Under the pieces are notes generated by a model. It was not told the origin of the DNA. It searched no databases and saw only the letters and a list, made by a program, of their open reading frames with translations. Made by a program: the position numbers and the translations under genes. Positions 6,393 to 24,000 of a DNA stretch of 24,000 nucleotides are shown in pieces. The DNA comes from Methanolobus halotolerans (GTDB taxonomy: Archaea; Halobacteriota; Methanosarcinia; Methanosarcinales; Methanosarcinaceae): the NCBI RefSeq assembly GCF_004745425.1, contig NZ_PGGK01000004.1, positions 203,434-227,433 of the forward strand, in the 5' to 3' direction. Numbering within the stretch: position 1 is the first letter of the stretch; every line of letters starts with the position of its first letter.

Positions 6393-8012
6393 ATGAGATT
6401 CGATCCTGATGAAATAAAGAAAAAAGCCAATGAAGATTTTGACAGCACGTGGAACGCGGGAAAAGAGTTCGTAAAAACAACAGGTCTGAACGAACAGTAT
6501 CCTCATCTGTCCATCAAATATGGAAAACCACATCCTATATATGAGACCATTTCAAAACTGCGTGAAGCATATCTTCGCATGGGCTTTGAAGAGATGATGA
6601 ACCCGCTTATAGTGGATGAAAGGGAAGTTCACAAGCAGTTCGGGCACGAGGCCCTTGCAGTCCTTGACAGGTGCTATTATCTTGCCGGCCTGCCACGCCC
6701 CAATGTCGGTATTTCTGATGAGAGCATAAGTGCAATCAGATGCATTCTGGGAGATATTGGTGATGAGGATGTCGAGACGATCAGGAAGATCCTGCATTCT
6801 TACAAGAAGGGTGACATCGAGGGAGATGACCTCATTCCGGAGATATCATCAGCAGTCGGCGTATCAGATACCCTCGTAGTCGAGATGATAGACCAGGTGT
6901 TTCCCGAGTTCAAGGAACTGGTCCCCCAGTCTACAAGAAGGACACTGAGAAGCCATATGACCTCCGGGTGGTTCATCAGCCTCGCATCCCTTCAGGAGCG
7001 CGCAAAGCCTCCGTTCAATCTGTTTTCCATTGACCGCTGTTTCAGGAGAGAACAGGAAGAAGATGCTGCACGCCTTATGACATATTACTCCGCATCCTGT
7101 GTGATAATGAATGAGGATGTGACCGTAGACCATGGAAAGGCCGTGGCCCAGAGCCTGCTGTCCCAGTTCGGATTCGAGAAGTTCATGTTCAGGCCCGATG
7201 ACAAGCGCAGTAAGTACTATGTTCCTGATACGCAGATCGAGGTCTTCGCATACCACCCGAAGCTAGTAGGCTCCAGGACCAAGTATTCCGACGGCTGGGT
7301 GGAAATCGCCACTTTCGGGATATATTCACCCACTGCACTTGCACAATACGGCATCTCCTGCCCGGTAATGAATCTCGGGCTAGGTGTCGAAAGACTTGCA
7401 ATGATATTATACAACGCAACTGACATCCGTTCACTCATATACCCACAGATCGCACAATATTCCGAGTGGAATATGGCAGATGACGAACTTGCAAGAATGA
7501 TCTATGTGGAAAATGTCCCTGAAACCCCGGAGGGTAAAGATATCGCAGAGGCCATTGTAGCTGTATGTGATGAATATGGCTCCACTCCAAGCCCATGCGA
7601 GTTCGTGGCATGGGAAAATGAGATCGAAGGGAAGAATGTAAAGGTCAGTGTCGTCGAACCTGAAGAGAACACCAAACTCTGCGGACCCGCCGCTTTCAAC
7701 GAGATAGTTGTATTCAATAATGATATACTTGGCATACCCGATAACAAGAAGTGGAAAGAAGCCCTCGAGAACCATTCCGCCAGAACGGGATTGAGATTCC
7801 TTGACTCCTTTGCCGCAAAGGCTGCAAGGGACATAGAAGAGGCCATTGCAAACGGCGAGGATGAAGTTGAGACAAGGGTACGTATCGTCAAGGTCCCATC
7901 CGAGATAAACATCTGCCTGGAGCCTCTTGCAAGCCGCTATATAACCGGCAAGAAGAAAAAAATAGATATCCGCGGACCGGTGTTTACCACAGTGAGGACA
8001 ACAATTGAATAA
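6393..8012 (+). CDS. sepS: O-phosphoserine--tRNA(Cys) ligase (SepRS)
   Basis: The 539-aa N-terminus is MRFDP…I…K…DF…W, followed by HP…ETISKLREAYLRMGFEEMMNPLIV and class II core motifs (LRSHMTSGWF, FSIDRCFRREQ, GLGVERLAM). This is a PheRS-alpha-like enzyme found in methanogens and Archaeoglobus. Confidence 0.95.
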   Translation: MRFDPDEIKKKANEDFDSTWNAGKEFVKTTGLNEQYPHLSIKYGKPHPIYETISKLREAYLRMGFEEMMNPLIVDEREVHKQFGHEALAVLDRCYYLAGLPRPNVGISDESISAIRCILGDIGDEDVETIRKILHSYKKGDIEGDDLIPEISSAVGVSDTLVVEMIDQVFPEFKELVPQSTRRTLRSHMTSGWFISLASLQERAKPPFNLFSIDRCFRREQEEDAARLMTYYSASCVIMNEDVTVDHGKAVAQSLLSQFGFEKFMFRPDDKRSKYYVPDTQIEVFAYHPKLVGSRTKYSDGWVEIATFGIYSPTALAQYGISCPVMNLGLGVERLAMILYNATDIRSLIYPQIAQYSEWNMADDELARMIYVENVPETPEGKDIAEAIVAVCDEYGSTPSPCEFVAWENEIEGKNVKVSVVEPEENTKLCGPAAFNEIVVFNNDILGIPDNKKWKEALENHSARTGLRFLDSFAAKAARDIEEAIANGEDEVETRVRIVKVPSEINICLEPLASRYITGKKKKIDIRGPVFTTVRTTIE

Positions 8013-12456: not shown

Positions 12457-13482
12457 TTAACTTACCTGAGCTTTATCGAGCCTGACCCAGAAAGTGCTGC
12501 CCTCTTCAGGAAAATTGCTGTCCACACCAACACTGCCGTTGTGAAGAGTTACAATCTTATGCACAATTGCAAGACCAAGACCTTTCCCCCTGATACTTCC
12601 CTTTTTTGCTTTATCCAGCCTTGAAAAGCGTTTAAATATAAATTCACAGTCCTCCTCGGGAATGCCACTTCCCCGGTCCTTCACACATGCCTGCCATTGA
12701 TCATCTGAGTCTGAGATGGATATTTCCACATGGCTTCCCTTCGGGCTGTACTTGATCGCATTGGATACAAGATTCGCAAAGACCAGTTTTATCGTAGAGT
12801 GCACCAATACAGGATACCGGCCCTCTGTTTCCAGACATATGGTCATTTCCTTTTTTTCGAATTCCGGTGTGAACTCATCTGCAATATTCCTGAGGATCAC
12901 TCCGAGGTCATCCGCTGAAAAATCCAGTCCGGTCACAGAATCAAGTTTGGCAAGTTCCGCTGCCTGTTCTATAATATTGATCAGGTTAATATTACTTTTT
13001 TCAATATTGGAAAGCAAGGACTTCTTCTTTTCATCGTCCTCCAATTCAAGCAGAATGCCGACAAAGCCGTTGATCAGAGATGCAGGATTTAACAGATCAT
13101 GACGCAGGATATCTGCAAAAAGTTCTTTCAACTGGTTAGAATACTGCAGTTCCTCTGAATAGACCATAAGTTCCTGCTTGTTCTTTTCCAGATCCTCGAT
13201 CCATCGCCTGAAAGCAAGTCCATAAGCCATCATGACTTCTACAAGAGGTGTTGAAAGGAAACCTACTGACTCCATCATTCTCTTGGGAGGAAGTTCAGTG
13301 GTCAATCTTGAAACTGCAGTTTCATGCAACTCGATGATATCTTCTGGAGGAACGTTGAATTTTACCAGTTCATAACCCAGATCTTCAGATCTCATAAGAT
13401 ACTTTTCTTCATGTGTCTCGACATAACCCCTTAAAATCTTATAATACCTGTCTTTGAATTCCGTTTTTGTAATATTCATCAC
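12457..13482 (-). CDS. Soluble sensor histidine kinase with RsbU-N-terminal-like (RsbT-binding) domain + HisKA + HATPase_c
   Basis: N-terminal residues ~8-95 (KDRYYKILRGYVETHEEKYL…VPPEDIIELHETAV…LVEVMMAYGLAF) align well with the B. subtilis RsbU N-domain as remembered (EQRYHQLLSRYI…IPPEEIISIHRKVL…LIEVMIGYGMAY). A coiled coil follows. The H-box is FADILRHDLLNP (His codon 13099-13101). The N-box is ANLVSNAIKY. The G-boxes are DRGSGI and GKGLGLAI. No TM segments. The start is GTG 13482 or ATG 13479, and both overlap the upstream TGA. Confidence 0.9.
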   Translation of the reverse strand: MMNITKTEFKDRYYKILRGYVETHEEKYLMRSEDLGYELVKFNVPPEDIIELHETAVSRLTTELPPKRMMESVGFLSTPLVEVMMAYGLAFRRWIEDLEKNKQELMVYSEELQYSNQLKELFADILRHDLLNPASLINGFVGILLELEDDEKKKSLLSNIEKSNINLINIIEQAAELAKLDSVTGLDFSADDLGVILRNIADEFTPEFEKKEMTICLETEGRYPVLVHSTIKLVFANLVSNAIKYSPKGSHVEISISDSDDQWQACVKDRGSGIPEEDCEFIFKRFSRLDKAKKGSIRGKGLGLAIVHKIVTLHNGSVGVDSNFPEEGSTFWVRLDKAQVS

Positions 13483-14060
13483 CCTGTCATATACACAAGT
13501 ATAGTTGCATCATCTGTCATGCGACCGTGATCCCCGAGTAGTGTTCTGGCCAGTTCCTGTTCATCCTGAAGCAGATACCTATCGTACGCCGAAAGCTTGA
13601 GACTTTCAGGTATACCATCTGTCCACATAAGAAGGAGGTTATCAGGAGATAACTGTGTTCTCTCAATGTGCAAATGCCTGAAACCGCCTCCCACGATACC
13701 CCAGCTTGAAGAAAAGTGAGAAACATCTTCCCCGTAAATCATAGCACGTGTGTTCCCGATACCTCCATACTCAAGGCTGTACTCATTCTGATCCACACGG
13801 ACAATACCCATGGCCACACCTCTTGTTTGTTTGACAGCCCTGTCACATCCCGAAAAGAGAGTATCCAGAGATTCACCGAGATGGGAAGAGACATACCCAA
13901 GAGCAGCTTTTGCAGCTTCCTCTGCATGTATTCCATGACCCAGTCCGTCGATCATACAGAGGGTCAGAAGATCATTTTCAAGCCACCAGTCACACTGGTC
14001 CCCACAATGTACGTCTCCATTGAACGAACGGGATTCCATTGCTATTCGCAAAAATACCAC
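13479..14060 (-). CDS. RsbX-like PP2C/SpoIIE-family serine phosphatase
   Basis: The protein is 186-193 aa. CGD…MIDGLGHG…RG…GIGN…WTDG reproduce the metal-binding motif order of B. subtilis RsbX (CGD, DGLGSG, GNV, TDG), and the size matches. The start is GTG 14060, which overlaps the upstream gene by 19 nt, or ATG 14039, 2 nt after its stop. Confidence 0.85.
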   Translation of the reverse strand: MVFLRIAMESRSFNGDVHCGDQCDWWLENDLLTLCMIDGLGHGIHAEEAAKAALGYVSSHLGESLDTLFSGCDRAVKQTRGVAMGIVRVDQNEYSLEYGGIGNTRAMIYGEDVSHFSSSWGIVGGGFRHLHIERTQLSPDNLLLMWTDGIPESLKLSAYDRYLLQDEQELARTLLGDHGRMTDDATILVYMTG

Positions 14061-14485
14061 AACCTGCTTCTAATACATGTTTTGAAATCGTCAGTTACCA
14101 AAATGTCAAGTTCATCCATCAACCTTTCAACTGCAGGAAGACCTGATCCAAGACCCGGTCCCGTTGAATAACCATCCTGCAAAGCCATATTCACATCCTT
14201 TATCCCCGGACCAGAGTCGATTGAAATAATCTCAATCCCGATGCATCCGTTTTTCCTGATCCCTCTGATAGATATGGTACCACCTGCAGAAGTGTGATAC
14301 ACAAGATTAGAGGCAAGTTCAGATGCTGAAATTGCTGCCTTGAATATGTACAGTTCCGGAAAACCAAGTATCCTTGTGATTGCCCGTACTTTGGTCTGAA
14401 CGTTTGCGACATGAGAGGTCTTTGTTACCTCCACTTTTGCCTCAAGATTCCCTCCAGCAGAACCGGGAGCAGGGATATCAGACAT
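14042..14485 (-). CDS. Second RsbT/RsbW-like GHKL serine kinase (anti-sigma-regulatory-factor family ATP-binding protein)
   Basis: The 147 aa carry an N-box (ELASNLVYH), G1 (DSGPGI), …LQDGYSTGPGLGSGLPAVERLMDE. It is a paralogue of the preceding RsbT-like gene. Its ATG at 14485 overlaps the upstream stop (ATGTCTGA). Confidence 0.85.
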   Translation of the reverse strand: MSDIPAPGSAGGNLEAKVEVTKTSHVANVQTKVRAITRILGFPELYIFKAAISASELASNLVYHTSAGGTISIRGIRKNGCIGIEIISIDSGPGIKDVNMALQDGYSTGPGLGSGLPAVERLMDELDILVTDDFKTCIRSRLWYFCE

Positions 14486-14888
14486 GTGGACGACTCATTT
14501 CCAGATTTATCTTTGTCAATCCGGGCTGCGACTCTATCTGAAAATCATTAACAAGCCTCTTTGCACCGGGGAGGCCTGCACCCAGTCCTCCACCAGTTGT
14601 ATAACCATCTTCCATAGCCTTGTCCACATCAACAATGCCTGGCCCATAATCCTCGATCTCTACTTTAATACATATCTCTGAAGAAGAAGTTCCCGTAACA
14701 ATATGACATACACCTTCTCCTGCATATTTGATCACATTTCTTGTCAGCTCGGAGATCGCAGTGGCCATACGTGTCTGATCAGCAGAGCCAAAGCCTATAT
14801 CAGCCATTTTTTTCCTTGCAGTCTGCCTGGCTATTAGGATGTCATCTTCATTTCGAAGATCTATGCTAATCTCACTTATTTCAATCAA
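14478..14888 (-). CDS. rsbT: RsbT-like stressosome serine kinase (GHKL)
   Basis: The 136 aa read [42 protein letters not shown]…[38 protein letters not shown]. This closely parallels B. subtilis RsbT as remembered (DIVAARQLGRNVAKELGFGTVDQARITTAISELARNIYLYAG…[38 protein letters not shown]). A TTG start overlaps the rsbS stop (TTGATTGA). Confidence 0.9.
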   Translation of the reverse strand: [136 protein letters not shown]

Positions 14889-15246
14889 CCCCTTCGTTGA
14901 ACATTTTTACCAGTTTGTCAAAACCTTTGTCAAGATTCAGTGCGGTATCCACACCGATCAGCTCACGCCCCATTTCAACCAGTGTCAGCGCAACCATTGG
15001 TTGCATGCCACAGAGGACAACCCTTGCACCCATTAGACGTGCCATTCTTGCGGTCTCATTGATGACACGGGCCATGAAAGAGTCGATTATGTCCATTGCC
15101 GTGATGTCTATGACAAGACCTTTAGCACCGCTTTTCTCCAGAGTTGACATGACATCGGACTGGTATTTCAGTGCGTCATCATCGTTCATATCACTCTGTA
15201 TCGAGGTGAGAAGAATATTTTTCAATTTCAGTATTGGAATTTCCAC
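14881..15246 (-). CDS. rsbS: RsbS-like single-STAS-domain stressosome scaffold protein
   Basis: I trimmed the track ORF (to 15324) to GTG 15246, which is preceded by GAGGTGA (15251-15257). That gives 121 aa, the same length as B. subtilis RsbS. IPILKLKNILLTSIQ…GLVIDITAMDIIDSFMARV…MGARVVLCGMQPMVALTLVEMG matches remembered RsbS IPILKLYNCLLVSIQ…GVVIDLTSVDMIDSFIAKV…[22 protein letters not shown]. The phospho-acceptor Ser in IIDSF is conserved (codon 15079-15081). Confidence 0.9.
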   Translation of the reverse strand: MEIPILKLKNILLTSIQSDMNDDDALKYQSDVMSTLEKSGAKGLVIDITAMDIIDSFMARVINETARMARLMGARVVLCGMQPMVALTLVEMGRELIGVDTALNLDKGFDKLVKMFNEGVD

Positions 15247-15260
15247 ATAATCACCTCTGC

Positions 15261-16061
15261 TTACACAAGTTTTCTTCCTACAAGTGTGAAGGCTTTTGAT
15301 ACACCATCTTTTAACGAGCCACATGTGATAATATCACTTAGGTCAACCCCAAGAGTTACAAGAGTCTGGGCAACATTGGGGCTGAAACCGGTTATGATAA
15401 TTTCAGCGCCAAGCATTTTACCCGCACTGACAGTCTTGAGAATATGCTGTGCAACGCTGGTATCGATCATCGGAACACCGGTCACATCAAGTATCGCCAC
15501 GGTGGCTTCGTTCTCAACTATAGATGAAAGGAGATTCTCAATAATCTGCTGGGCACGCATAGTGTCAATCACCCCTACAAGCGGAAGTATTACAATACCT
15601 TCCCAGAGTTTGATAACCGGAGTAGAAAGCTCCATTATAGTTCGGCTGTGTTCCTGAACTTCTTCCTCGATCTTCACCCTCTCGGTAATATCAATGACGT
15701 ACTCGACTCCGCCCACAATATTACCATCCTTATCTCTCAAAGGTGACGCAGTGTATTCGATGGGGAAGGTCTTGCCTCCGGTTGTAATCTCATTTCTCCA
15801 TACATACTTCCTGTCATTTTTCATTGCCTGCTTGACGCGGCAGTTATCTGTTCTGCAATGGGAGGACTGCACAAAGTCATAACACTTCTTACCCTCGACA
15901 TTTTCAAAATCGTCCCCCATCCATTCGCATCCTGTGTTGTTTAAGAACAGTATATTAAAATCCAGATCAACGGCCATCACCATACATGGAAGTTGATTAA
16001 GCACATCCTTTGCAATATCCACATTTTCCACATTATCTGAACTTACATTTTCGTTAACCAT
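15261..16061 (-). CDS. RsbR-like stressosome sensor: N-terminal Cys-rich PAS domain + C-terminal STAS domain
   Basis: 266 aa. Residues ~20-128 look like a PAS fold (…MVMAVDLDFNILFLNNTGCEWMG…GKKCYDF…PIEYTASPLRDKDGNIVGGVEYVIDITERV). Residues ~145-260 are an RsbR-type STAS domain (STPVIKLWEGIVILPLVGVIDTMRAQQI…VAILDVTGVPMIDTSVAQHI…GAEIIITGFSPNVAQTLVTLGVDL). The Thr equivalent to the RsbR phospho-site in V(D)T is present (codon 15459-15461). A GGAGGT SD lies upstream (16065-16074). Confidence 0.9.
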   Translation of the reverse strand: MVNENVSSDNVENVDIAKDVLNQLPCMVMAVDLDFNILFLNNTGCEWMGDDFENVEGKKCYDFVQSSHCRTDNCRVKQAMKNDRKYVWRNEITTGGKTFPIEYTASPLRDKDGNIVGGVEYVIDITERVKIEEEVQEHSRTIMELSTPVIKLWEGIVILPLVGVIDTMRAQQIIENLLSSIVENEATVAILDVTGVPMIDTSVAQHILKTVSAGKMLGAEIIITGFSPNVAQTLVTLGVDLSDIITCGSLKDGVSKAFTLVGRKLV

Positions 16062-16304: not shown

Positions 16305-16970
16305 GTGAGTAGTACTGACAATTCTGAAGCAAGGATCAAGTTAGTAGTTTTTGATATGGACAGCACCCTGATAGATGCTGAAACCATTGACGAACTTGCA
16401 AAAGTTGCAGGGGTAGGAGAGAAGGTAGCCATGATAACCAAACTGGCTATGAATGGAGAACTCAACTACTCAGAGGCCCTTACTGAGAGAGTGCGTCTTC
16501 TGGAAGGTCTGAACTTTGAAAGGGCAAAAGAAGCCCTGGACAGTATGCCTTTCATGCCTGGCGCAAAAGAGCTGGTCAAATTTTTAAAATCCCATGGATA
16601 CAAAACCGCAATGATATCCGGCGGATTCACCCTTGCTGCAGAGCGTGTGGGTGAAACACTGGGTATGGACCATGTGGTTTCAAACGAACTTCTGATAGAC
16701 AATGGACACATAACAGGGGAGGTCACGGGACCTCTTACAGGAGAAGGATCAAAGGAACCTGTCCTGGAAGAGATCTCCGGTGAATATGGGATAGAACCCG
16801 AAGAGTGTGTTGTGATAGGTGATGGTGCCAATGATATCTGTATCTTCAAAAGAGCCAGATATGCCATAGCATTTAATTCAAAACCTATATTACACGAGCA
16901 CGCCGACATTGTCATCACAGAAAAAGACCTTGAGGCAGTAATACCAGTGATCCAGGCACTGGACCCGTAA
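16305..16970 (+). CDS. serB: Phosphoserine phosphatase (HAD superfamily, SerB)
   Basis: The 221 aa have a GTG start. HAD motif I is VVFDMDSTLI, followed by SGGF, then K…GDGANDI. ETIDELAK…T..AM.GEL.Y.E.L..RV is the SerB cap signature. Confidence 0.9.
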   Translation: MSSTDNSEARIKLVVFDMDSTLIDAETIDELAKVAGVGEKVAMITKLAMNGELNYSEALTERVRLLEGLNFERAKEALDSMPFMPGAKELVKFLKSHGYKTAMISGGFTLAAERVGETLGMDHVVSNELLIDNGHITGEVTGPLTGEGSKEPVLEEISGEYGIEPEECVVIGDGANDICIFKRARYAIAFNSKPILHEHADIVITEKDLEAVIPVIQALDP

Positions 16971-16991
16971 AGCCAGAATCGTGCATTATGA

Positions 16992-17900
16992 ATGCATGAA
17001 ATGCCAGCTTTTTTGCTGGATCGGGAGGATAAAAAGGATATGTTGAAAGAACTGAACGACAAGAAGACTGAACTTAAGAAGCAGTCTGAAGAATACAAGA
17101 CAAAAAGAAACGAACTCAACGCAGAAGCAAGTAATTTAGCCTCAAAGCGTAACGAGCTCAACAAGAAGACAAAAGACCTTATCAACGAAGCACAGGAGTA
17201 CAAGAAACTCCGCGATGAGAACAACGAGAAGGTAAAGGAATACAAAGTACTTCGTGATGAGGTCAACGCAAAGGCAAACGACATCTTTGCACAGATAGAC
17301 CAGATCCGCAATGTGAACAATCTTGGCGGCCCTTCTATAAAGGACATACGCAAAGAGATCGACAAACTGGAATTCACACAGCAGACCGAAGTCCTTACGA
17401 CAAGCAAGGAAAGAGAACTTGTCAACAAGATTACTGAACTTCAGAAACTCTATTCTGCAAAGAAAGAACAGCTTGAAGGCAATCAGGAACTCAAGGACCT
17501 TTTGAACAAAGCCCAGGAAATAAGAGACGAGGCTTCTGAACATCATAAAGTACTTTCTGAATATGCCCAGCAAGCACAGGATTATCACGATAAGATGATT
17601 ACCACTTTCAAGGAAGCGGATAAGATCCGTGCAGAATCCGACGCTGCCCACAAGGATTTTGTCAAGTTCCAGGAAAGTGCCGATGAGCAGCACAAACTGT
17701 TTATATCAGCTCAGAAAGAGATCCGTGACATTGATAAAGAGATCCGCAAGATCAAAAAAGGCGATGTCGATGGCAAGAAAGAGGCTGCAAAGGCAGATGC
17801 CCGCAAGGATGCAGAGGATATTTTCGATAAGTTCAAGTCAGGTGGCAAACTTACAACCGAGAACCTCATGGCTCTCCAGAGGTCAGGTTTCCTTAAATAA
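16992..17900 (+). CDS. Archaeal coiled-coil protein (COG1340-like); start may be ATG 17040
   Basis: The ORF is K/E/N/D-rich with heptad-like repeats (…KRNELNAEASNLASKRNELNKKTKDLINEAQEYKKLRDE…). The central loop is NLGGPSIKDIRKEIDKLEF and the C-terminus is LTTENLMALQRSG. This is typical of the uncharacterised archaeal coiled-coil family often found next to serB. MLKELNDKK (17040) is the family-like start. Confidence 0.75.
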   Translation: MHEMPAFLLDREDKKDMLKELNDKKTELKKQSEEYKTKRNELNAEASNLASKRNELNKKTKDLINEAQEYKKLRDENNEKVKEYKVLRDEVNAKANDIFAQIDQIRNVNNLGGPSIKDIRKEIDKLEFTQQTEVLTTSKERELVNKITELQKLYSAKKEQLEGNQELKDLLNKAQEIRDEASEHHKVLSEYAQQAQDYHDKMITTFKEADKIRAESDAAHKDFVKFQESADEQHKLFISAQKEIRDIDKEIRKIKKGDVDGKKEAAKADARKDAEDIFDKFKSGGKLTTENLMALQRSGFLK

Positions 17901-17922
17901 TCAAAAATTGATCAAAATTGAG

Positions 17923-17950
17923 GGGTGAACTTTCACCCTTCCCATTCTGT
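17923..17950. terminator. Putative bidirectional terminator between convergent genes
   Basis: A GGGTGA-ACTT-TCACCC hairpin (17923-17938) is followed by T-runs (…CTGTTTTTATAGTTTTTAT). It sits between the coiled-coil gene stop (17900) and the radical SAM gene stop (17971). Confidence 0.35.
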
Positions 17951-17970: not shown

Positions 17971-19116
17971 TTATCGTTCAAGTCCGAGATGGACCTTCCT
18001 GAATTCAGGATCCCGCATCAGGCAGGGACCTGCTTTGAAAACAGGGTCTTTATATATCTTTTTCCATACAGATCCCAATGATTCACTGTGGATGTTACCG
18101 TATGGTTTCGGCATGCATGCACAAGGCAGCACATTCCCTTCAGGAGTTACGTGGAGCCACTTCCTGCCTGCAAAACAGCCCATTTTTCGGATGAGTTGAG
18201 GGATCGGGAATACACGCGGGCCTTCTGCACAGGATGTGCGCTCTACGAAATCATCGAACTTTTCCAGATCTTCTGCAGAAAGGACTTCCTTTTCATGACC
18301 CTGCCACCTGCCAGTGGGAACTATCTCATAGAAAGAAAGTTCATGCACACTCAGTTCCTTTGCAAGCTCATAGAAGTCATCCAGTTCACCGATGTTCCGG
18401 GGGGAAAGAACCACATAGATACCGACCAGAAGACCGGCATCCAGACCGTTCTTTATAGCATCCGTGGCTTCCCTGAAAACGCCCGGCCTGCCACGCATAA
18501 GGTCATGTCCTGCTTCATGTGCACTGTCAAGGCTTACACTAAGCATAGAGAGCCCGGCATCTTTTAGACTTGAAGCACGCTCCGGATTCAGGCCCACACC
18601 GGACGTAAAAAGACCAGGGATTGCACATGACTGGTCGACATAGCTGATGAGATTTTCAAGACCATCGTAGAGCAGAGGCTCCCCGCCATCAAATATGATA
18701 AGAGTTGTACCCATATGCTGGGCCTGGTCAATCACGCTCTTCACAACACCAGGATCCAGCCGTGCATTATTTCTGGTGTCCGGGAGAGCACAGTGTATAC
18801 ACCTGTTAGGACACTCCTCGGTGATTGAGATTGTGATCTGTTCCGGAATATATTTTCCCCTCATTGCACTCATCTGGCTTGATACAAGGCGGTCAAATGC
18901 CTCGCTGGGTATGGGAGGCATCCAGGTAGAGTATATCAGCCGGTCTTTTTCTACCTTAGAGGGTTTTGTATCCTCGAATATCTCCAATATATCCGAAACA
19001 AATGAGCCCATGATAGAGGATGCTATACCTGAAGTCTTCATCCTGACCCTGCCATCCTCTAGCCGGGCATATACTTTGAAAAACGGGTTCCTGTAGAAAT
19101 AATATTTATCCTTCAT
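17971..19116 (-). CDS. Radical SAM enzyme with ~90-aa N-terminal extension and twitch/SPASM-like C-terminal Cys motif
   Basis: 381 aa. The canonical CX3CX2C is within ISITEECPNRCIHCAL. The GGEPLL SAM-binding motif is present. The C-terminal auxiliary-cluster-like segment is GCFAGRKWLHVTPEGNVLPCAC…GPC. The start is 3 nt after the stop of the upstream flavoprotein gene. Confidence 0.9.
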   Translation of the reverse strand: MKDKYYFYRNPFFKVYARLEDGRVRMKTSGIASSIMGSFVSDILEIFEDTKPSKVEKDRLIYSTWMPPIPSEAFDRLVSSQMSAMRGKYIPEQITISITEECPNRCIHCALPDTRNNARLDPGVVKSVIDQAQHMGTTLIIFDGGEPLLYDGLENLISYVDQSCAIPGLFTSGVGLNPERASSLKDAGLSMLSVSLDSAHEAGHDLMRGRPGVFREATDAIKNGLDAGLLVGIYVVLSPRNIGELDDFYELAKELSVHELSFYEIVPTGRWQGHEKEVLSAEDLEKFDDFVERTSCAEGPRVFPIPQLIRKMGCFAGRKWLHVTPEGNVLPCACMPKPYGNIHSESLGSVWKKIYKDPVFKAGPCLMRDPEFRKVHLGLER

Positions 19117-19119
19117 CGT

Positions 19120-20277
19120 TCACTTTGTCCTGAAGACAGCCCTGTATGAGAGTATCGAAGAGGGATTGTTCTTCAATATCATCTTTGATATCTGTAAAGC
19201 CTGGCTAAAGGGACTTCCACCAAGGATCTTCAGGTCTTCTCCTTCAAAGACCTTTATCATCTCATCGATCTCTTTATTGTTCATTTTCCTGAGAGTCTCA
19301 AGGGCTAACCTTCCAAGATAGTACTCTGTCCTGTATGTTCTGTTCCAGAGTTGCCTGTATTCGGACAGGTATCTTTTTGATGTATCACCTTTTGCAATGG
19401 CTTCAGCTGCGATGTCACCACACATCTGCCCTGCATGCATGCCATATCCTATGCCGGACTGAGCTGCGGAGCCGCCGGTTATCATTACGCCGTCTGCAAC
19501 TATCTCCCCCGGGAGAGCAGCTATCGGGTCACCACCCACTGATGTGTTGATGATCTTCACTTCATCTATACCCTTCAGGGTCTTGAACTTTTCAAGCCAG
19601 TCATCAAAGAAATCAGAGACATCCTTGCCGTGCCTGCGTACATACATACCAAGGGTCGCCCTGTTCCCGCCACATGGAGAATAAGTGGACTTCCAGCCCG
19701 GTGCATGATTCCCAACATAGTATTCGAACATATCCGGTTCACCGATACCTTCTGCCTCGATCTCGGCTTCCAGGGACCAGGCGATATCTTCCGGATGCTT
19801 TATGGGTTTCATGCCAAGAAGTGCACTTATCCTTGAGTTGATACCGTCCGAGACGATTACCAGTTTACACTTCATCTTACCTTTCGAAGTACTTACCAGA
19901 AAGCTTTTTTCAGACCTGAGAACGTTTAGGACCTCTATACCAAAGCGAACCTCTGCGCCCGCTTCCTCCGCCTGCCTGATATAGAATTCATCGAACTTCC
20001 TGCGGTCAAGGAAGTATGCATCTCCTTCAAAAGCAACATTCCTGCCCGAAGGTGCTATAATATAGGCACCCCTGAGGTTCTTGACAACATAACTCGGGTC
20101 CACTTTCTCGCCTGTACGGTCAAACATTCCTTTGAAGAACGTGTTCGCCGGGTGGGTGGGCACACCTGCTGCTTCTTTTTTATCCAGAAGGATAACTTTG
20201 CAGCCTTTTGCTGATGCATTCCTTGCTGCCATAACTCCCGCAGGGGAAGCTCCTATTACAATGATATCCGCATCCAT
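19120..20277 (-). CDS. FAD-dependent oxidoreductase, divergent geranylgeranyl reductase family
   Basis: 385 aa. The N-terminal dinucleotide fold is DIIVIGASPAGVMAARNASAKGCKVILLDKK. Overall architecture is GGR-like (…LVIVSDGINSRI…, …ITGGSAAQSGIGYGMHAGQMCGDIAA…). The canonical GGR motifs as I remember them (YxWxFP, GDAAG) are altered (PGWKSTYSP, GGSAA). Confidence 0.82.
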   Translation of the reverse strand: MDADIIVIGASPAGVMAARNASAKGCKVILLDKKEAAGVPTHPANTFFKGMFDRTGEKVDPSYVVKNLRGAYIIAPSGRNVAFEGDAYFLDRRKFDEFYIRQAEEAGAEVRFGIEVLNVLRSEKSFLVSTSKGKMKCKLVIVSDGINSRISALLGMKPIKHPEDIAWSLEAEIEAEGIGEPDMFEYYVGNHAPGWKSTYSPCGGNRATLGMYVRRHGKDVSDFFDDWLEKFKTLKGIDEVKIINTSVGGDPIAALPGEIVADGVMITGGSAAQSGIGYGMHAGQMCGDIAAEAIAKGDTSKRYLSEYRQLWNRTYRTEYYLGRLALETLRKMNNKEIDEMIKVFEGEDLKILGGSPFSQALQISKMILKNNPSSILSYRAVFRTK

Positions 20278-20311
20278 ATCGAACCTCGTTCACAATTAAT
20301 TAATTCTAGTC

Positions 20312-21277
20312 CTACCATAATATAACGGCATATGCCGGAACAAATATGCAAAGTATTACATCAAGAATGAGAGAACCAAACATGATGCCCCTGTATCTGG
20401 AACCCTGAAGGAACAATCTTCCTCCACGTTCAGGTGTCGGGTTCTTCATAAAATCAAATGACTGAGTGAGCATCCACCCGCCTGCAAGCAACGCACCGGC
20501 AAAGTATATGGGACCGATCTTTGCTGTGAGTCCGATGGCAATGGAAGCAACAACACCTACGACCCACATGAGGGTTACGAACTTTGCAGTTCCAGGCACC
20601 CCGAATGTTACCGGGAATGTGGGAGCACCTCTTGCACGGTCTCCCTCAATGTCCCTTGCAACGCCCGAAAGAGTGAAACCCCAATCTGTAAAACACATCA
20701 TCAAACCAAGGAAAATTGCAGGCAGCGGCAGTATGTCACCGTAGGATGGGACTACGCCGAAAAGCCCGGGAATGTTAAGCACTCCGGTAGAGTCGAATGC
20801 AAGCCAGATACCTATGGGAACAAGACCGTAGGCAATACCCACGGGCACAAAGCTCAGGAATGTGGCTCTTTTAGCTATGGCCGAGTAGATGCTGATTGTT
20901 GCAACAGCTATCAAAAGCACCACAAAGGACTCCGGGTTGAGTATAAGCGCAGCCGCACCGGCAACCAGGAAAAGGAAAAGCGCGTATTTGAGCGCCTGAT
21001 TCCGCGTGAGCCGTTTGGATACCAGCGGACGGTTGGGAAGGTTGATCTTATCGATATCCATATCGCAACAGTCATTATAGACATAGGAACTCGTGATAGC
21101 TGCGTAACCGCCAATCACCGCGATTATGAAAGGTATCAACGGAGGGAACGATCCAGTCGCAAGATAGGCTGCCAGCAGAGCACTGGCAGCAGGAAGGGCA
21201 ATATCCATATCGGCTATCTCGGGCCGGAGGAGCTCAACATAAGGATTCCTAGTTTTTGATTCTGAAATGGAAACCAC
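20312..21277 (-). CDS. UbiA-family membrane prenyltransferase (substrate unknown)
   Basis: 321 aa with about 8-9 hydrophobic segments. The first Asp-rich motif is NDCCDMDID(KIN). The second is ARDIEGDRARG. ELLRP near the N-terminus is typical of the family. A GTG start is preceded by GGTGAT. Confidence 0.87.
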   Translation of the reverse strand: MVSISESKTRNPYVELLRPEIADMDIALPAASALLAAYLATGSFPPLIPFIIAVIGGYAAITSSYVYNDCCDMDIDKINLPNRPLVSKRLTRNQALKYALFLFLVAGAAALILNPESFVVLLIAVATISIYSAIAKRATFLSFVPVGIAYGLVPIGIWLAFDSTGVLNIPGLFGVVPSYGDILPLPAIFLGLMMCFTDWGFTLSGVARDIEGDRARGAPTFPVTFGVPGTAKFVTLMWVVGVVASIAIGLTAKIGPIYFAGALLAGGWMLTQSFDFMKNPTPERGGRLFLQGSRYRGIMFGSLILDVILCIFVPAYAVILW

Positions 21278-21443
21278 GTTATCACCAGTAAATTCTAGCC
21301 TCCTAATTTTCAGTATCGTATATTTAGTTTTGGAGAGGGGCGGGGAATAATGGAGGGAGTTTTATGGACTTGTCATGCACTCATCTCTCATGCATGAATT
21401 TGGAAGGATTTATTTAATATGTTAGTTCAATGCTTTTTCATTC

Positions 21444-22416: not shown

Positions 22417-22824
22417 CTAATTCACCTCTCTCTCAGCAACCTCCCTAATCCTCCTGATGATCGACGCCAGCCCATCCGCCCTTGCAGGCGAAAGATTTGA
22501 CTTCAGGCCGATCTCATCTATGAAATACAGGTCGAGATCCAGTACCTCCTGAGGAGGGCGGTTGTTCACAACCTTGAGTAAAAGAGAAATGATTCCCCTG
22601 GTTATCATGGCATCACTATCAAGATCGATTATGAGTCTGCTGTCCTCTTTATATGTCCTGATCCAGACCTTTGACTGGCATCCGCTGATGGAGTTCTCCT
22701 CGTTCCTGAATCTCTCATCCATGGGCTCGAGCTCTTTGGCATAGGAGATGAGCAGACCGTACTTGTCAAGCCATTCGAGGCCATCGAACTGTGCTATGAT
22801 CTCGTCCTGGACAGCATCTCTCAT
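22417..22824 (-). CDS. sufE: SufE/CsdE-family sulfur acceptor protein
   Basis: 135 aa. The signature around the persulfide-accepting Cys is ENSISGCQSKVWI, followed by DSDAMITRGIISLL, as in SufE. The ATG overlaps the desulfurase stop (ATGA at 22821-22824). Confidence 0.85.
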   Translation of the reverse strand: MRDAVQDEIIAQFDGLEWLDKYGLLISYAKELEPMDERFRNEENSISGCQSKVWIRTYKEDSRLIIDLDSDAMITRGIISLLLKVVNNRPPQEVLDLDLYFIDEIGLKSNLSPARADGLASIIRRIREVAEREVN

Positions 22825-24000
22825 GCATACATCATCCTTACTTTTTCTATGCCTTCAATCAGCATATCGGCATCTTCTTTTGTATTGTACAATGCAAAAC
22901 TTGCCCTCACCGTGCCTTCGGTTCCGAGGGACCTCATCAGAGGCTGGGCACAGTGATGTCCGGTCCGCACAGCTATTCCCATCTTGTCCAGTATCAGTCC
23001 TGTGTCGTAGTGATGAATACCGTCAAGGTTGAACGAGATGGAACCGCACATCTCTTCGGTGTTCCCGTAAACCGTCACACCGTCGGTTTCCAGTAACCTG
23101 TCCCTTGCATAGGAATATACCTCATGCTCGTGCTTCCTTATCCGGCCCATGCCGATATTCTGCATGTAATCGATTGCAGCACCGATACTTATTGCACCCG
23201 CAATGTGGGGTGTGCCTGCTTCGTATTTTAGAGGAGGGTCCAGGTAAGTCGTTTCTTCAAGGGTCACCCTGTCAACCATACCCCCACCGCCTTTTGCAGG
23301 CATGATATCACTAAAGCGCTCGCTGGTGTAAAGCACGCCAACCCCGGTAGCTGCATACATCTTATGGCCTGAGAAAGCCAGGAAATCACAACCTATATCC
23401 TTCATATCAAGCGGCAGGTGCTGGATAGACTGGGCTGCGTCCACCAGGACAGGAATATCGTGATCCTTTGCGATCCCGGTTATCTCTTTTATCTTATTTA
23501 CAGAACCAAGGACATTCGAGACATGAGAGATCGATATCAGTTTTGTTTTAGCAGTAATCTCCATTGAATCCATCAACAAATTGCAGTCAAAATCCATCGG
23601 AATTGCCCTGAGCTTTGCACCTGCGAGTTGCCATGGCACGATATTTGAGTGGTGTTCCACACCGGTTATCATAACTTCGTTGCCCTTCAAAACCGGTTCA
23701 AGCGAGCGTGCTACCTGATTAATGGAATCGGTTGTCCCGGCAGTAAACGTCACCTCATCCGGATTACCGGCACCAATGAAGTCACAGACCTTTTGCCTTG
23801 CCTTCTCATATTTTTCACTTGATATCTCGCTTAAATAATGCACTCCTCTATGAATATTGCTGTTGTCAGACCTGTAGAAATCAGATATAGTATCAAGCAC
23901 TAGATTTGGTTTCTGGCTTGTTGCTGCATTATCAAGATAAAATAGTTGTTTCCCATATATCTCTTTATCAAGTATCGGAAAGTCTTTCTTAAAATCGGTC
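22821..24000 (-). CDS. sufS: Cysteine desulfurase, SufS/CsdA-like (class V aminotransferase); 5' end lies beyond the window
   Basis: The HRG.H motif is NIHRGVH. The PLP-Lys motif is FSGHKMY. The active-site loop is RTGHHCAQP. The track ORF starts at an internal GTG (23900), but the frame stays open to position 24000. Upstream it reads …DFKKDFPILDKEIYGKQLFYLDNAATSQKP, the canonical SufS N-terminus, so the gene is truncated by the window edge. Confidence 0.92.
   Translation of the reverse strand, partial: TDFKKDFPILDKEIYGKQLFYLDNAATSQKPNLVLDTISDFYRSDNSNIHRGVHYLSEISSEKYEKARQKVCDFIGAGNPDEVTFTAGTTDSINQVARSLEPVLKGNEVMITGVEHHSNIVPWQLAGAKLRAIPMDFDCNLLMDSMEITAKTKLISISHVSNVLGSVNKIKEITGIAKDHDIPVLVDAAQSIQHLPLDMKDIGCDFLAFSGHKMYAATGVGVLYTSERFSDIMPAKGGGGMVDRVTLEETTYLDPPLKYEAGTPHIAGAISIGAAIDYMQNIGMGRIRKHEHEVYSYARDRLLETDGVTVYGNTEEMCGSISFNLDGIHHYDTGLILDKMGIAVRTGHHCAQPLMRSLGTEGTVRASFALYNTKEDADMLIEGIEKVRMMYA

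Follow-up and report, generated by a model that had tools for sequence, protein, structure and literature searches.

In the Methanosarcinales, electrons are carried in the membrane by methanophenazine, a compound whose structure has been on record since 1998. Here we ask whether a locus in Methanolobus halotolerans supplies some of the enzymes that make it. The locus lies in a 24,000-nucleotide stretch of DNA (the window, by which we mean the whole stretch) and consists of genes for a UbiA-superfamily prenyltransferase, a flavoprotein of the geranylgeranyl reductase (GGR) family and a radical S-adenosylmethionine (SAM) enzyme, together referred to as the trio. We give about even chances to the reading in which the trio carries out late steps in the synthesis of a polyprenylated membrane compound specific to the Methanosarcinales, most probably methanophenazine; the trio would then be a form of prenylated redox-cofactor biosynthesis, and its genes are candidates for the missing methanophenazine steps. 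The pathway was still termed undeciphered in 2018 (PMC6315138) and in 2021 (PMC8546582), and in the full-text literature on methanophenazine to mid-2026 we found no paper assigning the trio genes or further pathway genes. The only enzyme experimentally tied to methanophenazine is the geranylfarnesyl diphosphate synthase MM_0789 of Methanosarcina mazei (PMC3017947; PMC8546582). The features of the locus are as follows.

20312..21277, minus strand: gene for the UbiA-superfamily prenyltransferase, 321 amino acids counted from a GTG codon
19120..20277, minus strand: gene for the GGR-family flavoprotein, 385 amino acids, soluble
17971..19116, minus strand: gene for the radical SAM protein, 381 amino acids
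18841..19116, minus strand: part of the radical SAM gene that codes for the N-domain (residues 1-92), which is conserved in the alignments
21319..21326, minus strand: TATA-like box TAAATATA, 42-49 nucleotides 5' of the UbiA GTG, read from the sequence
17914..17938, minus strand: hairpin GGGTGAAAGTTCACCC and then a T-run, directly 3' of the radical SAM stop codon

An earlier note on this DNA (the original prediction) had described three tightly packed minus-strand genes. The open reading frame (ORF) calls match that description exactly, with gaps of 34 nucleotides between the UbiA and flavoprotein genes and 3 nucleotides between the flavoprotein and radical SAM genes, and the motifs that the note had named (NDCCDMDID and DIEGD in the UbiA protein, CPNRCIHC in the radical SAM protein) were all located in the translations. 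Because the gaps are this short, and because the first gene is preceded by a TATA-like box and the last has a hairpin and T-run behind it, the trio looks like one operon. The TATA-like box is likely the operon promoter, whereas the hairpin and T-run are terminator-like and would be common to the trio and the convergent DUF7121 gene. (A search of the window for Rfam families and tRNAs found none.)

The observation of the trio is far beyond chance. Its flavoprotein and radical SAM protein match NCBI proteins of M. halotolerans with 100% identity. Orthologs with at least 56% identity occur throughout the Methanosarcinaceae; all three proteins have such orthologs in Methanosarcina, Methanococcoides, Methanohalophilus, Methanosalsum, Methanohalobium and Methanomethylovorans, and the UbiA protein also has one in the anaerobic methanotrophic (ANME) archaea of group ANME-2c. 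When a single genome for each GTDB species was scanned, 185 gave matches, and the loci that we describe are the best 80 of these 185, all of which are labeled as Methanosarcinaceae or as unclassified metagenome-assembled genomes (MAGs) of the Methanosarcinales or Halobacteriota. The order and orientation of the three genes (UbiA, flavoprotein, radical SAM) are kept in 76 of the 80; two loci are cut by contig ends, and two have no UbiA gene at that place. With the two contig-end cases set aside, the trio is thus syntenic in related genomes, as the original prediction would have it, at 76 of 78 informative Methanosarcinaceae species loci, and we regard it as near-universal in this family. The median gaps over the scanned loci are 17 and 19 nucleotides, and the same order is also found in M. 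barkeri and on three metagenome contigs. More divergent members occur as UbiA-flavoprotein or flavoprotein-radical SAM pairs (loci L174 and L093). In two related MAGs (L044 and L050) the flavoprotein-radical SAM pair is kept with no UbiA gene upstream, the UbiA gene having been moved or lost.

The evidence that ties the trio to methanophenazine comes from relatives of its radical SAM protein. An exhaustive representative search reached relatives bearing the N-domain down to about 30% identity, and a rough neighbor-joining tree, from which we take clades A-E, places the radical SAM proteins of the trio operon in clade A and has clade E as its sister clade. The closest relative outside the operon clade of the Methanosarcinaceae is encoded by a gene that overlaps an upstream polyprenyl synthase gene, and the best model for the synthase is the Methanosarcina-type geranylfarnesyl diphosphate synthase. 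Clade E proteins are 43% identical to the radical SAM protein of the window. Among the 76 loci with clade E sequences from a metagenome scan, the clade E gene lies directly downstream of, and on the same strand as, a gene of the geranylfarnesyl diphosphate synthase type in 57 (for example L108 5970-8176; also L094, L103, L105-L114 and most of L116-L167); 12 lack the synthase despite sufficient flank, and the remainder are too short to judge. Ten clade E loci could be named by exact-sequence match, and they belong to Methanosarcina, Methanomethylovorans, Methanohalophilus, Methanothrix soehngenii/harundinacea and ANME-2c; the synthase is upstream in all of them but the ANME-2c locus (L104). Proteins of M. 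barkeri and M. flavescens are among those in the Methanosarcina cluster. The synthase encoded upstream in Methanosarcina sp. Ant1 scores 586.6 bits over its full length against the GFPS_Meth cut-off of 600, and its gene sits just upstream of the A-type ATPase operon.

We favor the methanophenazine reading because clade E is coupled to the C25 synthase of methanophenazine across the Methanosarcinales, because the trio is conserved and syntenic in the Methanosarcinaceae, and because the linkage of UbiA and radical SAM genes recurs independently at two further loci (L090 and L086, see below). The original prediction had proposed methanophenazine as a possible product; the clade E paralog beside the synthase strengthens that proposal and stops short of proving it, and the roles of the individual enzymes are still conjectural.

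The first enzyme of the trio bore out its description as a UbiA-family membrane prenyltransferase with both Asp-rich motifs. It scores 147.9 bits against the Pfam family UbiA (PF01040; cut-off 34.2), carries NDCCDMDID at residues 68-76 and DIEGD at residues 209-213, and has about eight hydrophobic segments, as in a polytopic membrane protein. (Note that its true start may differ from the GTG by a few codons, since most database orthologs are 314-317 amino acids long.) The top NCBIfam match is PRK12884, with 107.6 bits against a cut-off of 269. The models for digeranylgeranylglyceryl phosphate (DGGGP) synthase gave 83.7, 79.3 and 38.4 bits against cut-offs of 296, 353 and 278, such that by score the protein does not fall among the canonical DGGGP synthases, as had been anticipated; heme O synthase (79.9 against 210), UbiA (60 against 275) and MqnP (at most 48 against 375-430) were likewise all below cut-off. 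The nearest solved structure is the DGGGP synthase of M. jannaschii (6m31, E 1e-10). The DGGGP synthase that has been assayed in M. acetivorans is MA0961 (PMC3357500), whose termini (MSAGI... and ...FIAGV) do not fit the trio UbiA protein of M. barkeri. Because the NCBIfam cut-offs are missed and the MA0961 termini differ, the UbiA protein of the window is, by these measures, a DGGGP-synthase-like paralog and not the lipid enzyme. The housekeeping DGGGP synthase, as a candidate identity, was ruled out by the missed cut-offs together with the separate, assayed MA0961.

The kinship with DGGGP synthase can be read in two ways. Since this nearest solved relative forms an ether, as methanophenazine requires, it argues for a role of the UbiA protein as an O-prenyltransferase. 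It would equally suit an explanation in which the trio tailors membrane lipids or polyprenol carriers, with the UbiA protein alkylating glycerol or another lipid acceptor, and the flavoprotein and radical SAM protein hydrating, desaturating, cross-linking or cyclizing the chains to give a lipid specific to the Methanosarcinales. We consider this explanation unlikely, while according it an appreciable probability. Membership of the flavoprotein in the GGR family fits it too, and the modification of archaeal lipids by radical SAM enzymes is established (Tes/GDGT-MAS, which are among the distant fold matches of our radical SAM model). The housekeeping lipid enzymes, however, are encoded separately (PMC3357500; PMC4244643), and the formation of hydroxyarchaeol has already been assigned to a homolog of phytoene desaturase (PMC10821996). 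Moreover, the partner of the clade E paralog is a C25 synthase, and C25 membrane lipids are not known from Methanosarcina (PMC3017947).

The flavoprotein also bears on the lipid explanation. Its top NCBIfam match is the superfamily model GG-red-SF (TIGR02032), at 125.1 bits and below the cut-off of 158.8; scores against the lipid GGR equivalogs did not exceed 101 bits (cut-offs 580-780), and MenJ gave 35 against 700. Residues 4-349 align with the T. acidophilum GGR structure 3oz2 (E 2e-25). We aligned the flavoprotein motifs, as defined in PMC10821996, with eight family members and the T. acidophilum GGR; the counts that follow are for nine family members. In 9/9 the catalytic-Cys motif RCGEG is replaced by HPAN(T/S), in 9/9 the YxWxFP cage (APAGYIWVFP) is replaced by APGWK(S/T)TY(S/A)P, and in 9/9 GDAA is replaced by GG(S/A/T)A together with a five-residue deletion, the Asp of the GD motif now being Gly. 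The RxxFD motif is retained, and the dinucleotide motif GxGxxG reads GASPAG (GxSxxG). The alteration of the canonical motifs noted in the original prediction is thus real when set against 3oz2, and it goes beyond mere paralogy, in that catalytic residues are lost. Likewise, the view that this is not the housekeeping GGR holds, given a score under the family cut-off and the absence of the catalytic motifs.

Taken at face value, the alignment makes the flavoprotein a member of the GGR family by fold that lacks the residues thought to do GGR catalysis, and it predicts a pocket turned polar by the exchange of the aromatic cage and the catalytic Cys for polar residues. A polar pocket, instead of one lined for hydrocarbon, counts against a lipid substrate. 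A lipid GGR was ruled out as the identity of this protein by the NCBIfam cut-offs and the lost motifs. Because the residues for hydride and proton transfer in GGR are gone, the flavoprotein may be no reductase at all; of the earlier description, then, a divergent GGR family member stands, and a plain reductase role has become less certain. (A regiospecific GGR paralog of M. acetivorans was reportedly described by Ogawa in FEBS J in 2014.) The three GGRs that PMC6309074 lists for M. acetivorans are 45-47 kDa, and the flavoprotein of the window is smaller, at about 42 kDa.

The third enzyme matches Pfam Radical_SAM (PF04055) with 72.5 bits (cut-off 29.5) and SPASM with 30.7 bits (cut-off 21.5). 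CPNRCIHC occupies residues 102-109, and the Cys residues of its CX3CX2C core (C102, C106 and C109) are invariant. The extra N-domain and the twitch/SPASM-like Cys segment that had been described for this protein are both present and conserved among 12 orthologs, in which C314, C332, C334 and C365 are invariant. The seven-Cys SPASM motif (CX9-15GX4C...CX2CX5CX3C...C), which holds two auxiliary clusters, is incomplete in the protein, with four Cys kept. As only these four are conserved, the C-terminal region fits a partial-SPASM or twitch-like arrangement that would hold one auxiliary cluster.

Among the curated equivalogs, two tetrapyrrole enzymes match the radical SAM protein best, NirJ2 (116.8 bits) and AhbD (112.6 bits), both with cut-offs of 500, followed by NirJ1 (92.3 bits) and AhbC (91.1 bits) with cut-offs of 500-650. 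AhbD, NirJ and PqqE were rejected as identities, at 98-117 bits against cut-offs of 381-500, and in fact no member of the trio reaches any curated equivalog cut-off, those for DGGGP synthase, lipid GGR, AhbD and NirJ included. The tetrapyrrole matches, together with that of the UbiA protein to heme O synthase, are what one would expect if the trio made some other, undescribed prenylated cofactor (quinone-like, or a prenylated tetrapyrrole), its restriction to cytochrome-bearing methanogens being coincidental to methanophenazine. Yet all of these scores lie far under their cut-offs and are usual for any SPASM or UbiA protein, and the link to geranylfarnesyl diphosphate synthase points toward the known C25 product. 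To our knowledge, no second compound of this kind has been mentioned for Methanosarcina. We rate this explanation as improbable.

An AlphaFold2 (AF2) model of the radical SAM protein has a predicted local distance difference test (pLDDT) score of 92, and its nearest folds are SkfB, SuiB, BlsE, PqqE, CteB and MoaA. Three of the top whole-protein folds (SkfB, SuiB and CteB) are maturases of ribosomally synthesized and post-translationally modified peptides that have N-terminal recognition domains. They raise the idea that the enzyme matures a peptide or protein, that its N-domain is a peptide-recognition element and that the operon lipidates or modifies a protein. The N-domain (residues 1-92) consists of three strands, a helix, the segment STWMPPIPSxAFDRL and a second helix, all conserved in the family, and the opening of three strands followed by helices would suit such an element. 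When taken alone, however, the domain (AF2 pLDDT 80) matched nothing in Pfam at E values up to 10, PqqD included, and nothing in a fold search of the PDB (best E 1.2); with neither kind of match, a peptide-binding role is not supported. We accordingly rejected the N-domain as a peptide-recognition element, the likeness of the whole protein to SuiB and CteB being gone in the isolated domain. Nor do gaps of 34 and 3 nucleotides leave room for a precursor-peptide ORF, and the recurring partners of the family are prenyl enzymes while its fusions are with lipid enzymes. Peptide or protein maturation is, in our judgment, very improbable.

Returning to methanophenazine, the substrate, order of steps and product that we infer for the trio are these. 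The UbiA protein would ionize geranylfarnesyl diphosphate at its two Asp-rich Mg2+ sites and move the C25 chain onto the hydroxyl of 2-hydroxyphenazine or of a precursor, thereby creating an ether bond by the O-alkylation chemistry of DGGGP synthase, its nearest characterized relative. The flavoprotein would act on the prenylated product, either by saturating the isoprene unit adjacent to the ether or by tailoring the head group through redox chemistry. The radical SAM enzyme, presumably coupled in translation to the flavoprotein, would contribute an oxidative step or one that forms a C-C or C-N bond, initiated by H-abstraction, on the head group or on the proximal part of the chain.

The wider radical SAM family has further arrangements. 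Clade B is a stand-alone copy beside eIF-2beta in Methanococcoides and Methanolapillus. Members of clades C and D occur as parts of a B-C-D triple in Methanonatronarchaeum, and the triple recurs in one 'Methanocellales archaeon' MAG. We observed three consecutive radical SAM genes in the Methanocellales MAG (L086 1445-9000) and in Methanonatronarchaeum (L088 5793-9231), which code for two paralogs with the N-domain and a 325-amino-acid PTO1314-like protein. In the MAG, the operon facing the triple comprises genes for a flavoprotein, a further radical SAM protein, a UbiA-like protein and a protein with an SsuA/NMT1-like binding-protein fold; its flavoprotein is 38% identical to that of the window and has lost the same motifs. 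The clusters at L086 and L088 may be a larger version of the trio pathway. Note that L086, where four radical SAM genes are combined with one UbiA-like and one binding-protein-fold gene, has a layout like that of futalosine menaquinone synthesis, which is a point in favor of a quinone-like cofactor as the product.

At another locus (L090 6150-10507) a UbiA gene (protein 46-48% identical to that of the window), a radical SAM gene, a second UbiA gene and an acyl-CoA dehydrogenase gene lie in a row; two UbiA genes in one place recall two successive alkylations, which would suit a lipid product. Three fusions within the family (P0384, P0462 and P0469) join the radical SAM protein to a fatty-acyl-reductase (NAD_binding_4) domain, LpxI and a UbiE-like methyltransferase. 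These fusions hint at lipid-type substrates, and those with the acyl-reductase domain and LpxI lend the lipid explanation further support. The recurrent partners of the family are prenyl and lipid enzymes, not peptides. On two unrelated contigs (L091 5077-8212 and L092 5924-8218) a site-2-protease (Peptidase_M50) gene adjoins a stand-alone radical SAM paralog.

A bolder form of the methanophenazine reading would make the N-domain twitch radical SAM family the core of an archaeal, radical-SAM-based route to methanophenazine, unrelated to the bacterial phz route, in which the UbiA protein forms the aryl ether and the motif-swapped GGR homolog acts on the isoprene proximal to the phenazine. In this sense the family takes in the operon proteins (clade A), those encoded next to the synthase (clade E), the clade B copies found elsewhere, and clades C and D, which belong to other methanogens with cytochromes. 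We put this forward tentatively, as possible and on the doubtful side.

Several observations weigh against assigning the trio to methanophenazine. The trio itself is not beside a geranylfarnesyl diphosphate synthase gene (none was found in the window or at the 80 flanked trio loci), and the link runs through the clade E paralog. Two 'Methanocellales archaeon' MAGs and Methanonatronarchaeum have related clusters or paralogs, and methanophenazine is not known from either group, although at least one lineage of uncultured Methanocellales carries multihaem cytochromes (PMC11176372). Moreover, the near-universal presence of the trio is a statement about the best 80 of the 185 loci, and not about Methanothrix, which is thought to use methanophenazine (PMC12918732), or about ANME-2a/b, ANME-2d and methanogens that do not have cytochromes. 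P0363, a clade-A-like member, lacks an upstream flavoprotein gene. The fusions with the acyl reductase and LpxI would point to lipids generally and not to phenazines, the possibility raised above that the flavoprotein does not reduce its substrate counts here as well, and what we say of the trio genes comes from sequence comparison and predicted structure.

On the plus strand of the window (16305-17900), convergent to the trio operon, lie genes for a SerB-like HAD phosphatase and for a coiled-coil protein of the DUF7121 family, and they adjoin the trio in nearly all Methanosarcinaceae loci, even where there are insertions between. We rejected both as parts of the system, as they are convergent and have no isoprenoid signature, and we take the association as conserved gene order only. 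Besides the SerB-like phosphatase, the window codes for O-phosphoseryl-tRNA synthetase (SepRS), at 6393-8012 (plus strand). At 12457-16061 (minus strand) lies a six-gene partner-switching or stressosome-like module that is unusually complete for a methanogen (PAS-STAS, STAS, two small HATPase_c proteins, a PP2C/SpoIIE phosphatase and an RsbU_N-HisKA-HATPase kinase). On the other side, SufS and SufE genes (22417-23900, minus strand) are parted from the operon by genes for a GNAT acetyltransferase and a small membrane protein. A SufE gene is found just upstream of the trio in four other Methanolobus loci (L010, L011, L014 and L019), with SufS beside it in three; L014 begins at a contig end.

Much of the biogenic methane on Earth is made by the Methanosarcinales, from acetate and methylated compounds, and the order also includes the ANME-2 methane oxidizers. 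With the trio and the clade E radical SAM gene, the methanophenazine question now has a defined set of conserved genes, in organisms open to genetics, on which it can be tested directly. If the assignment is right, these genes would be markers with which to predict the use of methanophenazine in uncultured archaea. If the product proves to be a different one, the operon would still define three uncharacterized things, namely a subfamily of radical SAM enzymes whose N-domain is new, a homolog of GGR whose active site has been rebuilt and a DGGGP-synthase-like prenyltransferase that is not a lipid enzyme.

Each component of the trio has counterparts among known systems. DGGGP synthase (6m31; MA0961) has both Asp-rich motifs of the UbiA protein and belongs with it to one fold family, and its O-prenylation yields an ether bond, the chemistry required for methanophenazine; in contrast to it, the UbiA gene of the window stands in an operon with flavoprotein and radical SAM genes and not with lipid genes, and is separate from that of the assayed Methanosarcina enzyme. 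With the GGRs of T. acidophilum (3oz2) and S. acidocaldarius (3atq) the flavoprotein has the fold and RxxFD in common, whereas its catalytic Cys, YxWxFP cage and GD motif are replaced, such that it is at most a putative reductase. A precedent is MenJ, a GGR homolog that acts on the side chain of menaquinone, a respiratory carrier, and saturates just one isoprene unit in it.

The radical SAM protein shares CX3CX2C, a C-terminal auxiliary-cluster region and the overall fold with twitch and SPASM enzymes such as AhbD, NirJ2, PqqE, BtrN, MoaA and SkfB, and differs from them in its four auxiliary Cys, in a unique N-domain of about 90 residues (S-T-W-x-P-P-x-P-S) and in having prenyl enzymes as partners. 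In the futalosine pathway to menaquinone, the radical SAM enzymes MqnE and MqnC and the UbiA prenyltransferase MqnP build a membrane electron carrier. The trio has the same pairing of radical SAM chemistry with UbiA prenyl transfer, without membership of that pathway by homology: its radical SAM protein is of the SPASM/twitch type, and MqnE and MqnC are absent among its best 25 NCBIfam matches. (We know of no assignment of MqnE or MqnC to the SPASM/twitch group.) Finally, the geranylfarnesyl diphosphate synthase of methanophenazine synthesis (MM_0789; GFPS_Meth) is encoded immediately upstream of the clade E paralog, and its tie to the trio is one of paralogy and of shared lineage distribution.

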